Source: an uncultured delta proteobacterium (GTDB lineage Bacteria > Desulfobacterota > RBG-13-43-22). Taken from it: a stretch of DNA of 64,000 nucleotides. Positions 1-4,226 of the stretch are shown one piece after another. Below the pieces are notes generated by a model, which was given only the letters and a program-made list of their open reading frames with translations, searched no databases and had not been told where the DNA came from. Where the stretch lies: NCBI GenBank assembly GCA_963790475.1, contig CAWBOS010000012.1, positions 64,001 through 128,000 of the forward strand, read 5' to 3'. Both the position numbers and the translations under genes were made by a program. The stretch's first letter is position 1, and every line of letters begins with the position of its first letter.

Positions 1-1188
1 TAACAGTCCAAAACGCCATTGTTGCCTATCGTGCTCTTGGAAATCAAGTAGTGTCTTAATATCCTCGATGCGGCCTCGCTGCAAGTGTCTTTCAAACCTT
101 GTCCTTTCACTTACATCAATGAAAACAACCTTAGTAGAGTTTGGAAATTGGCTCCTAATATATTGTAACTCTTCAATAAGTCTAAAGCCAGTTATAATTG
201 TATTGTTACACAAATCCTTGCCATACAAACCGACAATGTACCTAGCTATTATGTCTGGCCCCTTCGCATGGAAAATCTCTTTTGCCAGGTAAAGCGGAGT
301 AGGCGCTTTTATCCCGTTTTCCTCAGCTATCAGTCGCATGATGTTACTAGCTTCGATGAATCGATATGGGTAGTGAGATGAGACATACTCTCCAAATGTG
401 GTTTTGCCTGCACATAGCTTCCCGACAATCAGGTACAAGGAAACATCCTCTTTAAACAGGCTGAGATTTGTTGTCAGTTTGGGCTGCTTCATAAAGTACG
501 ATCCGCTTAAATTGAGTACTGCCGCAAATTCCTCAAGTCTATCAGTAAGAGAGATTAAAGATTTCACGCGAAAGTCATATTCCAGTGATTCCTCAAAAGA
601 CATTTCACCAAGGCGTTTTTTTGCTCCATTTGGTACGAACCAGCCATTGAAGGAATCAGGCCTAAGCCAAGGATACTGGTCCGACTTATTAAAATTGGGG
701 GGCGTTTCTGCAACATGACCGCTGGTTTCGCCATGGATGAATACAGGTCTTTTCAAATTGGGCACATGTAAGGCAATATCCGAGTACACAGTAGCGGTTC
801 GATCGTTCCCATGCTGCCGTAACACGGCATCGATTTCCTTGAAGCTGGTCCTTGCAAACCACTCCTTAATTTTTAGGCCAGGTACAATCTCGTCGGCCGA
901 ACATAATGCATCAATCTTGACAGAAGTATCCTCAACAAAGAACATCGAGTTAACCCCTAACCGATATTTGATCTCGTCGATGGCGCGGGATAAGAGTTGT
1001 TCTTGGCCCAGGTTATAGTCCTCATGATAAGGATCTTGTGAGCTCTTAAAATGCCGCAATATAAGGCCAACCTTTTGGAAGATCAACCGCGCTTGAATGA
1101 ATTTATCGATACTTGATGTATAGAATCCTATCCCAAGTCGCTTAGGGGAGTTGATGAATAATTCTCTAATCTTAGGTTTAGACATCAT
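1..1188 (-). CDS. HAM1/ITPase-like domain fused to a P-loop NMP-kinase domain; 3' end lies outside the window
   Basis: Hand translation from ATG 1188 is open to base 1 (396 codons). HAM1-fold motifs: FYTSSIDK, FFVEDTS, PGL, GETSG, LGEMS. Kinase part: Walker A GKLCAGKTT, ITGFR..EE, RFERHLQRGR. ATGA overlap with the upstream stop. Confidence 0.85.
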   Translation of the reverse strand, partial: MMSKPKIRELFINSPKRLGIGFYTSSIDKFIQARLIFQKVGLILRHFKSSQDPYHEDYNLGQEQLLSRAIDEIKYRLGVNSMFFVEDTSVKIDALCSADEIVPGLKIKEWFARTSFKEIDAVLRQHGNDRTATVYSDIALHVPNLKRPVFIHGETSGHVAETPPNFNKSDQYPWLRPDSFNGWFVPNGAKKRLGEMSFEESLEYDFRVKSLISLTDRLEEFAAVLNLSGSYFMKQPKLTTNLSLFKEDVSLYLIVGKLCAGKTTFGEYVSSHYPYRFIEASNIMRLIAEENGIKAPTPLYLAKEIFHAKGPDIIARYIVGLYGKDLCNNTIITGFRLIEELQYIRSQFPNSTKVVFIDVSERTRFERHLQRGRIEDIKTLLDFQEHDRQQWRFGLL

Positions 1189-2174
1189 AGGTTCTCTTCG
1201 GTTTCATGGCCGGTATTTCGACCCTTGCAGACCCCGAGGTATTTGGCTTGAGTGGTCTCTTGTAGCGTCTTGTTAATCTTCTCCATCATAGCTGATGCGT
1301 CGGCTGGAGCTATGGCATAGATGAGAGGGCCCATACTACTCATGCCGGCTGCGACATGATCATGTTTGTTGAGGAGTTCCAGAAGAGATCTCACCTCTTT
1401 GCCTTGACCTTGGAGTTCTCGTTGCTTGAAGCCGGTTGTATGAACATCTACCATCGATTGTTTGAGTAGGCGAAGATCGCCATCCATAAAAGCCGGGATT
1501 ATCCCATGATAAACTGCTGCTAATACTCGAAATACCTCTTCTCCGGGAATAGGTGTATTTTGTTGAAAGAACATGATCTCATCATCACCCGTGTATATGC
1601 GGTTGTCCGATAAATAAAGATGGATCTGCCATTGTTCGGGGAATGGCAATCTAATGCTCACGGGTGGGGTCACGGAAGCTTGCCTGGCAGATGATGGTAC
1701 AAAGCCAATCTCTGTAGACTGGGGGTGCCCTAGGTCAACGATAATCCCCCCTTGAAAGAAGACGTTCACTCCTACACCGGAAGCTCCACCTCTGCGGCAA
1801 AGCTGCTTGATATCGTCTGGCAGCAGGGGGTTCCCAAGTAAAGCATTGCAGGCTGATCCGATGGCTAACAATAAGGCAGTTTTGCTGCCAAAGCCGACGT
1901 GTTGCGGTGGAAGGGCAAGGATGTGAACCGTGAACTTTGTGTGCAAAACAGTCGCGATTCTCTCGATGAGTGCATGCACGTCTGCCTCATCACGCTGATC
2001 GATCTTATCTTGGAGTGTCAGTTCATTAACGATTCCAAGACTAGACTCTACCTCTATCGGTAGTGCATCGAGGGAGAACCCGGCTCCGCCATATCGTCGA
2101 TGTGTGATGCCAGCGACATCGATGAGCGTGAGGTGAATTCTAGGAAAGGCTCTAACTATTACCTTTTGTTTCAT
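1185..2174 (-). CDS. Beta-ribofuranosylaminobenzene 5'-phosphate (RFAP) synthase family protein, GHMP-kinase fold
   Basis: Motifs PRIHLTLID, RRYGGAG, PQHVGFGSKT, RGGASGVG, GGIIVDLGH, FVPSS, GFKQRE, GMSSMGP. Likely start ATG 2174 (MKQKVIV). Confidence 0.85.
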   Translation of the reverse strand: MKQKVIVRAFPRIHLTLIDVAGITHRRYGGAGFSLDALPIEVESSLGIVNELTLQDKIDQRDEADVHALIERIATVLHTKFTVHILALPPQHVGFGSKTALLLAIGSACNALLGNPLLPDDIKQLCRRGGASGVGVNVFFQGGIIVDLGHPQSTEIGFVPSSARQASVTPPVSIRLPFPEQWQIHLYLSDNRIYTGDDEIMFFQQNTPIPGEEVFRVLAAVYHGIIPAFMDGDLRLLKQSMVDVHTTGFKQRELQGQGKEVRSLLELLNKHDHVAAGMSSMGPLIYAIAPADASAMMEKINKTLQETTQAKYLGVCKGRNTGHETEENL

Positions 2175-3000
2175 TGGATTCAAACCACTCAATAGGAACC
2201 GGCCGTGAAAATTCCGGATTGTTCCATATCCCATCGAAGTGATCTAATAGTCGTTTATAAAGGGTCCCTTGTTGATTCAACACAAACGTAGGAAAATTCC
2301 TGCTTACATCCCCGATAAGATACGGTCCCCAAAAGAGATTGTCATCGATACGAAAAATGTTGATCGACGGTAGACAGCGATATAGCTTGATTTCAAAACG
2401 GAAATCTCTATTCCTTAATAATTCGGCGCACCCTCGTATGAAAGAGTGCACATCCCGTCTTATATCACCAAGATCATTGTTCTCTTCCTTGTCGCGTTGA
2501 TCGGCAAAGGAGCATTTTGGACTGGGGAACTCCGGATCGAGGAGTAATATTCGAACATTGGCTCGAGCCGCCCACTTTGCGAAGTCATGATGGTAATCTT
2601 CATTAAAAGCTCGAAGCCCAAACCCCATTATATCGATAGCTTCTGACACATGGTCCAGTCGCGTATCATATTCTGCCTTGATTCGAACGGCCCTGCTCTC
2701 GAACGCTTCGATCAAACCAAACTTACGAATGATTTCCATCCGACGAGACTCATCTTGTGATAGCCAGACGTAGAGGAAAAGGACCCAGCCCGCGATTGCA
2801 GTGGCAATGATGGATCCACCGAGCGAGATAATTATCGTATTGCGGGTCGGGTCCCTTAAAGTACTTCCGGAAATCACCAACAATAGTCCAATTACCAAAA
2901 GCACAAAGTGAAGCGCAAGATATATCCAATGTGTTGCTTTGATTTTCCAGATGGCTCGTCTTATGAATCGTATTATATACATGGCGCTATTTTCTCTCAA
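2152..3000 (-). CDS. Two N-terminal TM helices plus a PLD-like (DUF5919-type) domain without HKD
   Basis: Two hydrophobic helices, then IDIMGFGL, VRILLLDP, FEIKLY..LP, FRIDD.LFWGPY, FDGIW. Start is TTG 3000 (overlapping the MTase stop) or ATG 2982. Confidence 0.65.
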   Translation of the reverse strand: MRENSAMYIIRFIRRAIWKIKATHWIYLALHFVLLVIGLLLVISGSTLRDPTRNTIIISLGGSIIATAIAGWVLFLYVWLSQDESRRMEIIRKFGLIEAFESRAVRIKAEYDTRLDHVSEAIDIMGFGLRAFNEDYHHDFAKWAARANVRILLLDPEFPSPKCSFADQRDKEENNDLGDIRRDVHSFIRGCAELLRNRDFRFEIKLYRCLPSINIFRIDDNLFWGPYLIGDVSRNFPTFVLNQQGTLYKRLLDHFDGIWNNPEFSRPVPIEWFESNETKGNS

Positions 3001-4226
3001 ACCTTCTTGAAAACGACAATAGTCTCCCGCGAAGGTCTCCTGCCATAGATCCCCATCTGTTGAGCGCTATTGCCTCTGTAACGGACAGCGATCATGTTTT
3101 CGCAGGATAAAAATGTTTGTTCACCTATCGTAGCTGTTAGTTCATCGGTGAGGATTGCTTGGCCGCCATACTGAACATTCCCGACGACAAATCCTATTTT
3201 AGCGCCACCTCTGCAGACACGGGAGATTTCTTTCAAGACTAAGAATATATCTTGAAAATATCCCTCAAGCATTGTGGGAACCCTTGGGTCGTGGTCACTT
3301 TTCCGCATTTTCGACAGGGCTCTGGTCAACGGCAATGGTTGAATATAACCCTCAAGCGCAGGCCGTTGGGGATGCGACTCCGGGTGTGAATGAAAACTCT
3401 GATAGCGAAGTTCACGAGTTTGCTCCCAATCAAGAAAGCTGAACATCAACTCAACGCCGAAAACGCGAGTATAGTCATGACGGTTAGGATATGGCGGAGA
3501 GGTTATAACCGCCGAATAAGTGTAGTCATCATCAGGAAGATAACGTGCATCTGATTGTTTGACTTGCCAGAGAGAACGCCGAGGAAAATGAACATCTTTC
3601 AGATCTTCAAACATTCCCTCTATTTTGGCCTTGAGTGTCAGAGGAATTTCCCTGTAGCCTTTTCGATTTTCAACCCAACTCAACCAGCCGCCAGTGGCAA
3701 TAGCGTGGCTGAATTCAGGTAGAATAGACAGAAGCGCAAGACGGAAAAAATCCTTCTCCTTTTCCAAAGCCTTTATCTCGCTTATTTCGTGTGAGATAGT
3801 ATCAAAAGCCCCCAATAAACGACCGGGCAGGGCCTTTTTTACTAATACCGGGTAATCTTTGATTGGGCCGTTCCATGAAGATGGATCGAGTTTCTTTTCC
3901 AATGCACGCCATGAACGCCTTAAGAGTGTTTCGTCATAATTAGCTACCTTTACCTGGGATGTTAGGACAGACAATGGTGAAATGTCATGTCCCGTAGCAG
4001 GAATTCCCTTTTCCTTCGCGGAAAGGATTGTCGTCCCTGCCCCGGCAAATGGATCGAGAATTCGATCCTGTGAGGTCAAGTTCCATTCCTCAATAAGCCC
4101 ATGAACTAAATCACCGGTGAAACTATGAGGAAAAACATACCAGCGGTGTATAGGCTTCGCCTCAAGTGGTTTGGGCGTCACCCATTGCCTCCATTCCAAT
4201 CTCTCTTCTACAGCGTATCTACTCAT
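2997..4226 (-). CDS. Amino-DNA methyltransferase (probably N4-cytosine), alpha motif order
   Basis: SAM-binding DPFAGAGTT near the N terminus and catalytic TSPPY later. Confidence 0.85.
   Translation of the reverse strand: MSRYAVEERLEWRQWVTPKPLEAKPIHRWYVFPHSFTGDLVHGLIEEWNLTSQDRILDPFAGAGTTILSAKEKGIPATGHDISPLSVLTSQVKVANYDETLLRRSWRALEKKLDPSSWNGPIKDYPVLVKKALPGRLLGAFDTISHEISEIKALEKEKDFFRLALLSILPEFSHAIATGGWLSWVENRKGYREIPLTLKAKIEGMFEDLKDVHFPRRSLWQVKQSDARYLPDDDYTYSAVITSPPYPNRHDYTRVFGVELMFSFLDWEQTRELRYQSFHSHPESHPQRPALEGYIQPLPLTRALSKMRKSDHDPRVPTMLEGYFQDIFLVLKEISRVCRGGAKIGFVVGNVQYGGQAILTDELTATIGEQTFLSCENMIAVRYRGNSAQQMGIYGRRPSRETIVVFKKV

Follow-up and report, generated by a model that had tools for sequence, protein, structure and literature searches.

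What does a HAM1-type nucleoside triphosphate (NTP) pyrophosphatase do when it is fused to a kinase, carries altered base-recognition motifs and is encoded at the end of a small operon with genes for a DNA methylase, a membrane protein and a synthase? The question is raised by a 64,000-nucleotide stretch of DNA from an uncultured delta proteobacterium (contig CAWBOS010000012.1, positions 64,001 to 128,000; G000:C12:64001-128000 in our numbering), here called the window. The fusion protein, P0001, is encoded across the window start and was followed into locus L002, which is the window plus 12 kb of upstream contig. The kinds of enzyme encoded, their intact active sites and the strict linkage of their genes are established below. 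Beyond these we infer, with a probability of about one half, that the operon is an undescribed anti-phage (conflict) system centred on a non-canonical ribonucleotide, with enzymes for its synthesis, phosphorylation and hydrolysis and a membrane effector that reads it.

A conserved cassette that ends in a fusion protein

P0001 consists of three parts: a HAM1-fold pyrophosphatase, a kinase-like domain of the SSO1041/UPF0200 type and a C-terminal domain. Its first 396 codons lie in the window, and the remaining 137 lie before it (G000:C12:63587-64000). The gene is missing from the list of open reading frames (ORFs) of the window. An earlier, sequence-only reading had remarked on this absence, which is real for the list and is an effect of the window edge, not biology, because the ORF runs past the window start and is shown only when open ends are allowed. 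In the operon the methylase gene is followed by the genes for a two-transmembrane (2TM) protein with a phospholipase D (PLD)-like domain, for a synthase and for P0001, and the genes overlap or abut. The last three form a conserved cassette, of which P0001 is the final gene. The features are as follows, in window coordinates unless another source is given:

G000:C12:63587-65188 (L002:11587-13188), minus strand: complete ORF of P0001, 533 aa, extending into the contig upstream of the window
1..1188, minus strand: P0001, HAM1-kinase-winged-helix-like protein, first 396 of 533 codons, open at the 3' end
1..441, minus strand: P-loop domain resembling nucleoside monophosphate (NMP) kinases, SSO1041/UPF0200 type, aa 250-426 (aa 250-396 in the window), from VIA and hmmsearch
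397..423, minus strand: Walker A motif GKLCAGKTT, aa 256-264, read from the DNA
517..1137, minus strand: HAM1-fold NTP pyrophosphatase domain, aa 18-224, from Pfam PF01725, VIA and Foldseek
568..576, minus strand: DFR at the canonical SHR site, aa 205-207, aligned with SHR of PH1917
637..651, minus strand: FNGWF at the canonical FG(W/Y)DP site, aa 180-184, aligned with FGYDP of PH1917
922..936, minus strand: VEDTS with the catalytic acidic pair E86 and D87, aa 85-89, aligned with IEDSG of PH1917
1185..2234, minus strand: GHMP-fold enzyme of the ForT/beta-RFAP-synthase family, a glycoside synthase dependent on phosphoribosyl pyrophosphate (PRPP); its stop overlaps the P0001 start (ATGA)
2152..3000, minus strand: 2TM protein, 282 aa; its C-terminal domain has the PLD fold but no HKD motif (DUF5919-like); candidate membrane effector that would read a ligand
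2997..4226, minus strand: type II-like N6_N4 DNA methyltransferase, first gene of the operon (PADLOC MTase_II, E-value 3e-60; Pfam N6_N4_Mtase), overlapping the next ORF by 4 nt

The linkage of the three cassette genes is strict. In a genome scan that was profile-seeded with P0001 and used tblastn, the synthase gene lies directly upstream of the P0001 homologue in 39 of 41 loci and the 2TM gene lies upstream of the synthase in 37 (36 by tblastn, and L041 by a closer query); all misses are at contig edges. A second scan, of 80 metagenome loci, was seeded independently with the PLD-like domain. Here the synthase follows directly after the PLD-like gene in 61 of the 64 loci with at least 500 nt of room, and a P0001 homologue comes next in 45 of the 47 with at least 1,600 nt. 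The three synthase misses are L051, where the gene is split, L110, which is a 1.1-kb contig, and L112, which has another architecture. The break in L051 (L051:1138-4331) is made by an IS21-type element with IstA- and IstB-like ORFs on the opposite strand. As labelled, the hosts of the 41 genome loci belong to Chloroflexota, Acidobacteriota, Actinomycetota, Myxococcota, Verrucomicrobiota, Bacteroidota, Alphaproteobacteria and Gammaproteobacteria, and the cassette is also present in Sphingomonas, Bradyrhizobium, Sphingobacterium and on Rhizobium plasmids. The cassette is conserved and has spread horizontally.

The P0001 family is rare yet phylogenetically wide. A word-indexed search scored 7,994 candidates, of which 375 reached E <= 0.001, and among the 120 matches listed nearly all have 485-578 aa and the same Pfam pair; several relatives are named 'non-canonical purine NTP pyrophosphatase' by NCBI. 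An exhaustive search of 1.84 billion cluster representatives returned 185 proteins at E <= 1e-30, 321 at 1e-10 and 1,060 at 1e-3. Close to home the protein is an accessory one: it was not found in any of 40 relatives (13 from the genus of G000, 7 from its family and 20 from its phylum; the quality is good for 22), so that G000 itself is the only one of 41 related genomes with a homologue. Among viral sequences, tblastn with P0001 gave no match in a collection of phage records. In IMG/VR a single contig, of 35 kb, has the complete cassette together with an N6_N4 methylase, and stand-alone HAM1 proteins of the P0001 type were not found.

Two other architectures were considered and set aside. A search with residues 1-230 of P0001 for shorter proteins found 23, of 116-292 aa and 48-62% identity; many lie on short contigs, and they are taken as fragments or split genes and not as a stand-alone HAM1 family of this type. 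In P0187 an incomplete synthase runs into an incomplete fusion protein, which has the look of a deletion or of a join made in assembly. In L004 the 2TM protein and the synthase share one 571-aa frame. This is weak evidence for a fusion, because it is a single case in about 120 loci and a sequencing error could produce it.

Scans for promoters, terminators and inverted repeats around the operon gave site counts no higher than those in shuffled sequences, and no clear operator. One sigma-70-like site matches at 11 of 12 positions (TTGAGA, 17 nt, TATAAT; window 2972-3000, L002:14972-15000, minus strand). It falls where the methylase gene ends and covers the TTG that is annotated as the start codon of the 2TM ORF. 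Judged from its position, the three-gene core may have its own promoter, with the 2TM protein starting at a later ATG.

Enzymes of the cassette and the candidate effector

Sequence and structure agree on the kinds of domain in P0001. Pfam assigns Ham1p_like (PF01725, 39.2 bits against a cut-off of 22.5) to residues 22-214 and AAA_17 (30.7 bits against 27) to residues 259-376; NCBIfam gives sub-threshold matches only (PRK08356, 45.6 against 189). The AlphaFold2 (AF2) model, made from a 28-row alignment, has a mean predicted local distance difference test score (pLDDT) of 86 and a predicted template modelling score (pTM) of 0.76, and its comparison with structural representatives by Foldseek and by VIA gave concordant results. 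The HAM1 domain superposes on PH1917 (1v7r) with a VIA Z of 21.5 and an rmsd (root-mean-square deviation) of 2.2 A over 186 aligned residues, and Foldseek matches it to 2dvp with an E-value of 9e-12. The scores are also high for ITPA (Z 17.5) and for KomB (Z 18.3 for 8zsg and 18.1 for 9v0g). The kinase-like domain superposes on SSO1041 (3lw7) with a Z of 20.8. The fusion proposed by the sequence-only reading is thus borne out at the level of fold, and the four motifs that it named (VEDTS, FNGWF, DFR and GKLCAGKTT) are read directly in the DNA. Its two-domain description holds for the HAM1 and kinase parts but lacks the third, C-terminal domain, which lies outside the window.

The catalytic and base-recognition motifs of the HAM1 domain have had different fates. 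When the P0001 family profile is aligned to the PDB sequence of PH1917, the motifs pair as listed above, and E86, D87, T88 and S89, F180, N181, G182 and W183, and D205, F206 and R207 are invariant in 28 homologues. An extra insert, P173-W174-L175, is invariant in the same 28. In a 14-row alignment with a clade from Bacteroidota and Rhizobium plasmids that is 25-30% identical, the motifs and the insert are kept except that G182 is replaced by K. The earlier observation that the catalytic Asp is retained while the FG(W/Y)DP and SHR motifs are changed therefore applies to the family alignments as a whole. P0001 shares with ITPA, RdgB, PH1917 and MJ0226 a common fold (Z 17.5-21.5), the catalytic motif ED(S/T) and, in the N-terminal motifs, the Lys and the Glu. 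It differs from them in its FN(G/K)WF, its DFR and its invariant PWL insert, in the fusion to a kinase and a third domain, and in being encoded by an accessory and not a core gene. Its scores against the canonical families are far below the cut-offs (23.3 bits against 145.35 for TIGR00042, RdgB/HAM1; 17 bits against 203 for PRK14821). Judged from these motifs, the base pocket is changed relative to canonical HAM1 enzymes.

The kinase-like domain has its best sequence and fold match in the SSO1041/UPF0200 'AdkA-like' proteins (3lw7, 3h0k) and PRK08356. The match to SSO1041 has an rmsd of 1.8 A over 167 residues and an hmmsearch E-value of 2.8e-19. Uridylate kinase, the next family, scores a Z of 14.8 and dephospho-CoA kinases score 11-13.7, so the domain is NMP-kinase-like and not a plain CoaE. 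TIGR00152 (CoaE) likewise stays below its cut-off (18.4 bits against 65.55, with a match in the Walker A region only), which answers in the negative the question whether the part after the HAM1 domain might be a plain dephospho-CoA kinase. SSO1041, which was crystallised with adenosine monophosphate, is a stand-alone archaeal protein, whereas the P0001 kinase lies between the HAM1 and C-terminal domains. No functional paper on UPF0200, SSO1041 or 3LW7 was found in the searched literature, the scope of which excludes subscription journals and supplementary tables. G256, C259, G261, K262, G334, R336 (of GFR), R364, R367, R371 and R373 are invariant in the 28 homologues and in the 14-row alignment, and by analogy R336, R364, R367, R371 and R373 may be NMP-binding and lid arginines. 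C259 (nt 412-414) lies inside the Walker A motif (GxxCAGK[TS]T); it is invariant in all aligned family members and unusual for P-loop kinases. In Asanoa ishikariensis (L030:1744-4101) and in the cluster representative P0168, the fusion protein is extended in frame by a full-length adenylate kinase that has a Cys4 zinc lid. This extension is compatible with a need for a further phosphorylation step.

Residues 441-530 of P0001 are modelled by AF2 with the element order H-H-H-H-E-E-H. A profile of the C-terminal domain gave nothing significant against PDB sequences and Pfam, the weak matches being arginine repressor (0.076), HTH_12, HTH_20 and Mrr_N, and the VIA search with the whole model returned no row that covers residues 440-533. 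In the mechanism proposed below, this domain is the sole candidate DNA reader of the cassette.

The synthase belongs to the ForT/beta-RFAP type, as shown by TIGR00144 (186.6 bits against a cut-off of 113.5) and by the match to ForT, the formycin C-glycoside synthase (6yqq, E-value 1.5e-27); the sequence-only reading had described the neighbouring gene as that of a synthase, and the assignment agrees. Enzymes of this family join PRPP and an aromatic carboxylate to give a C-ribonucleoside 5'-phosphate, CO2 and pyrophosphate, and in ForT the PRPP residues are Arg-19, His-99 to Thr-106 and Arg-135 (PMC8183095). R32, H112 to T119, R148 and S152 of the cassette enzyme align with ForT Arg-19, His-99 to Thr-106, Arg-135 and Ser-139, and R32, H112, G114, G116, T119, R148 and S152 are invariant in 29 cassette synthases. 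The enzyme thus shares its family and its PRPP-binding residues with ForT, PyfQ and beta-RFAP (RHP) synthase. In contrast to these, it is not the methanopterin enzyme, scoring below the cut-off of the methanopterin equivalog NF040726 (197.5 against 328), and it lies outside antibiotic gene clusters. In Bradyrhizobium tunisiense (L014:10427-12441), genes for a chorismate-binding enzyme and a glutamine amidotransferase lie 1 kb past the cassette on the opposite strand. This pair, which resembles anthranilate or para-aminobenzoate (PABA) synthase, is a possible source of the aromatic acid at that one locus.

The 2TM protein is modelled with a pLDDT of 92.8 as two transmembrane helices, a long connecting helix and a globular domain (residues 94-270). 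The nearest folds of this domain are TrmBL2 (Z 13.0; Foldseek E-value 5e-7), the FAM83B pseudo-PLD (11.9), the TrmB sugar-binding domain and NucT (both 11.8), SauUSI (11.6) and Nuc (10.7). Pfam matches are weak (PLDc_2 in 6 and DUF5919 in 5 of 29 members), and the Atlas neighbours fall in 'hypothetical' or DUF5919 clusters. The catalytic HxK(x)4D motif is absent, with no invariant His or Lys in the 29-row alignment: R150 stands at the site of the HKD lysine, the His position is variable, and S233-R-N resembles a remnant of GSxN. In relatives the domain is attached to other heads. In P0121, a 513-aa protein on a 4-kb ENA contig, the 2TM module is replaced by a patatin phospholipase (Patatin, E-value 1e-30), joined to a PLD-like domain that has 49% identity over 181 residues to the one encoded in the window. 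In L111 and L112 (L112:2496-3812), a SEFIR/TIR domain (SEFIR, E-value 9e-14) is fused to it, and TPR proteins flank the gene. Defence effectors are usually built in this way, with one constant domain that carries interchangeable heads, either membrane-attacking or TIR-like, and by this analogy the 2TM protein looks like an effector.

Together these parts suggest a cycle. The synthase would join PRPP and an aromatic acid from the cell's metabolism into an unusual ribonucleoside 5'-monophosphate. The kinase domain would convert the monophosphate to the diphosphate, from which the cell's nucleoside diphosphate kinase would then give the triphosphate. Since the HAM1 domain would cleave the triphosphate back to the monophosphate, a single fusion chain would set the level of the phosphorylated nucleotide. 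A futile cycle that holds down a toxic or signalling nucleotide, as the sequence-only reading proposed, fits the gene context. The dead PLD-like domain of the membrane protein would read the phosphorylated nucleotide and trigger the 2TM module, or the patatin or SEFIR/TIR module in relatives. The methylase would mark self DNA, and the C-terminal domain of P0001, or another step, would link the switch to foreign DNA or infection.

Genomic setting, methylase linkage and competing explanations

The operon lies in an island of about 12 kb (L002:5001-17000). Its GC fraction is 0.38-0.48, and that of the flanks is 0.50-0.52; on one side are shikimate-pathway genes (aroK, aroC, tyrA-like and DAHP synthase) and on the other is a gene for a major facilitator superfamily (MFS) transporter. 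The island holds two defence-like gene sets. The second set follows the cassette on the minus strand (L002:5456-11473, G000:C12:57456-63473) and encodes a bSEFIR/TIR-IF2_N-WD40 protein (632 aa; PADLOC bSEFIR, E-value 1e-57), a vWA protein, a Ser/Thr kinase with a weak TCAD9 match, a PP2C phosphatase and a 462-aa protein without a family. This set looks like a vWA 'ternary' conflict system.

Flanks of 18 other loci were searched through 119 ORFs by Pfam, 58 of them also by PADLOC. Defence genes lie within about 3.3 kb of the cassette in L011 (a type I restriction enzyme and an IetA-like ATPase), L012 (PDC-M33A), L019 (type IIG), L022 (UzuA and NucC-like), L025 (Shedu and TCAD9), L021 (TCAD9) and L040 (AbiEi/Eii and IetS). 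Integrases, resolvases or transposases are present in L003, L012, L020, L021, L022 and L039. The flanks of L006, L010, L014 and L029 show no recognised defence or mobility genes. ORFs of 1,300-1,600 aa without a Pfam or PADLOC match adjoin the methylase-less alphaproteobacterial cassettes of L010 (10145-14872), L019 (9813-13814) and L029 (1227-5414).

A DNA methylase accompanies the cassette in 22 of the 41 genome loci (in L003 the matches are partial and 4-6 kb off), in 10 of the 15 metagenome loci whose contigs leave room on either side, and in 28 of all 80 metagenome loci. On two Rhizobium plasmids, genes annotated as DNA adenine methylase, hypothetical protein, beta-RFAP synthase family protein and non-canonical purine NTP pyrophosphatase form a co-directional, overlapping operon. 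Two unrelated methylase families, D12/Dam-like and N6_N4, are found at the same place, and no restriction endonuclease was seen beside the cassette methylases. For the 71 loci in which the P0001 homologue is complete, the class of methylase was set against the class of sequence in the putative recognition helix of the C-terminal domain:

NNANK: D12 in 27 loci, N6N4 in 1, none in 5
NxSRYF: D12 in 10 of 10
YNTNRALK: no methylase in 20 of 20; the named hosts are all Alphaproteobacteria
xVNWVL: N6N4 in 4 of 4
Other: no methylase in 4

In a quick tree of the HAM1 and kinase parts alone, the helix classes are mostly clades. The pattern therefore reflects stable co-inheritance of methylase and cassette and not independent co-variation. 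The correlation, complete as it is, was accordingly rejected as independent evidence, since it follows clades and comprises few independent events.

Several observations weigh against the defence reading. F180 and R207 of P0001 align with Phe-149 and Arg-178 of ITPA, and both are retained. In the available text of a review of ITPA, Phe-149 excludes guanosine triphosphate, Arg-178, part of the SHR signature, contacts the 6-keto group, and these are the two residues with experimental support for base selection (PMC5075207). A 6-oxo-like substrate is therefore possible for the HAM1 domain, and on the sequence an ordinary 6-oxopurine NTP such as inosine or xanthosine triphosphate (ITP, XTP) could be cleaved, although the sequence-only reading took the ligand to be neither of these two. 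The two catalytic domains of P0001 may also act on different nucleotides. The AF2 element order and the weak sequence matches do no more than suggest that the C-terminal 95 or so residues are a winged helix, and no infection sensor is evident. The PLD-like domain, read as catalytically dead, may still hold a phosphate-bearing ligand. It stands in L112 without a synthase or P0001 homologue beside it and may thus serve in systems other than this cassette. The alphaproteobacterial clade manages without a linked methylase at all 20 of its loci. Metabolic genes are neighbours in L006 and L014, and genes for ABC transporters on the Rhizobium plasmids. The phage records and IMG/VR show no sign of a phage-borne counter-defence enzyme, and P0001, the synthase and the 2TM protein are all without a PADLOC model.

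First among the alternatives, and unlikely on balance, is that an antiviral or antibiotic C-nucleotide is itself the weapon, comparable to viperin-type chain terminators or to formycin and pyrazofurin. The kinase would then activate the compound, the HAM1 domain would protect the producer, and the 2TM protein would sense or release it and not kill. The synthase family is known for the biosynthesis of C-nucleotide antibiotics (PMC8183095), and synthase, kinase and HAM1 domain always occur together. However, genes for making a special base are absent from the cassette, so that only a common metabolite can serve as the aromatic acid; the way in which 2TM, patatin and SEFIR modules replace one another on the PLD-like domain is typical of defence effectors and not of exporters; and the link to a methylase is left unexplained.

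Next comes a more specific and improbable form of the defence reading itself, in which immunity is linked to methylation and the messenger does not derive from a standard NTP. The C-glycoside synthase would build the messenger from PRPP and an aromatic acid, and the kinase/pyrophosphatase chain would poise the cycle. The winged-helix-like domain would sense unmethylated sites of the linked N6-adenine methylase, or of the resident CcrM in Alphaproteobacteria, and tip the cycle to the triphosphate, which would open the 2TM, patatin or SEFIR effector through the dead PLD domain. In a possible variant, an N6-methyladenine nucleotide set free when methylated host DNA is degraded would be the one that is read, which would explain why any adenine methylase suffices.

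It is doubtful, and less probable than either of these, that the cassette acts in a restriction-like manner, by attaching the nucleotide product, or a phosphoribosyl group, to unmethylated DNA or inserting it there, with the adenine methylase protecting self. Methylases that lack an adjacent endonuclease and overlap cassette genes would be expected to fit such a system, as would two unrelated families filling the same place and a helix class that tracks methylase class in the 71 loci, and the PLD fold is used by the restriction nucleases SauUSI, NgoAVII and BfiI. The PLD-like domain here, however, is without the catalytic His and Lys, and the substrates known for the synthase family are small aromatic acids and not DNA. 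The helix correlation follows clades, and one clade has no methylase at any of its 20 loci.

A metabolic or regulatory module, in which a NadR- or BirA-like enzyme-plus-repressor would govern ribotide salvage or synthesis (of a cofactor precursor, for example) and the 2TM protein would be a membrane sensor, is quite unlikely. Beta-RFAP synthases are best known from methanopterin synthesis (PMC8183095), enzyme domains are paired here with an apparent DNA-binding domain, and some loci have metabolic neighbours, such as the anthranilate/PABA-synthase-like genes of L014. Yet the cassette was not found in any of the 40 relatives, and it sits in a low-GC island among defence genes, with methylases, integrases and transposases in the flanks. 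Fusion of the PLD-like domain to patatin or SEFIR in relatives, and a synthase score of 197.5 against the methanopterin cut-off of 328, also speak against it. Finally, an ordinary ITP/XTP house-cleaning enzyme fused to a nucleotide kinase by chance is very improbable: the NCBI name, the canonical fold and catalytic residues and the retained F180 and R207 are in its favour, but TIGR00042 is far from reached (23.3 against 145), the FGxDP and SHR motifs are changed invariantly, the PWL insert is invariant, and the gene is strictly linked to the cassette and not found in relatives, unlike a housekeeping gene.

Relation to known systems and significance

The nearest described system is Kongming, the defining features of which are not present here. 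In the available text of its description, Kongming consists of the deaminase KomA, the HAM1 protein KomB and the SIR2 protein KomC, and brings a HAM1 protein and a base-modified nucleotide into immunity; in KomB the catalytic Asp is replaced by His-65, the purine-binding residues are kept, and the protein is a sensor bound to SIR2 (bioRxiv 10.1101/2024.12.20.629578). As far as that text goes, the likeness lies in a HAM1-fold protein encoded in a small defence-island operon, in a nucleotide kinase step and in a central non-canonical nucleotide, which here is a proposed one. P0001 is the opposite of KomB in that D87 is invariant and the base motifs are changed. In addition, the kinase here is host-encoded and shares a chain with the HAM1 domain, and PRPP would be the starting material of the nucleotide. 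Neither the window operon nor the flanks of the 18 loci showed a gene for a SIR2 protein or a deaminase.

On the defence reading, the cassette shares with CBASS, Pycsar and Thoeris the small operon, the nucleotide-making enzyme and an effector in which the ligand-reading domain is constant and the killing part (2TM, patatin or TIR-like) can be exchanged. In contrast to those systems it has no CD-NTase, cyclase or TIR synthase, its reader is a dead PLD fold and not SAVED, SLOG or STING, and it carries a hydrolase and a kinase on one chain and an attached DNA methylase. Nuclease-free defence of the BREX/Pgl type links an N6-adenine methylase to 'metabolic-looking' enzymes (kinase, phosphatase) without an endonuclease, and in this the cassette is similar. 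The two have no components in common, however, and the cassette methylase is optional by clade.

A combination of HAM1, NMP kinase, GHMP and PLD folds, each of them known, was not found in PADLOC or the searchable literature, and no paper on this cassette was found there, subscription journals and supplementary tables again lying outside the search. The cassette may be a nucleotide-centred defence with a HAM1 component, and categorically new chemistry is also possible. Since the cassette is small (three or four genes) and present in cultivable non-pathogens, it is directly testable.

The known routes to immune nucleotides are the cyclisation of NTPs, the generation of signals derived from nicotinamide adenine dinucleotide (NAD) and the deamination of bases. 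Should the cassette be a defence system, a new route would join these, in which the nucleotide is assembled from PRPP by a C-glycoside synthase and switched by a kinase and a pyrophosphatase on one chain. It would also join nucleotide signalling to self-marking by DNA methylation in a four-gene system. In that case a function would be gained for three families whose present annotation is housekeeping or unknown: for proteins now named 'non-canonical purine NTP pyrophosphatase', for 'beta-RFAP synthase family protein' outside methanopterin producers and for DUF5919-like dead PLD domains.

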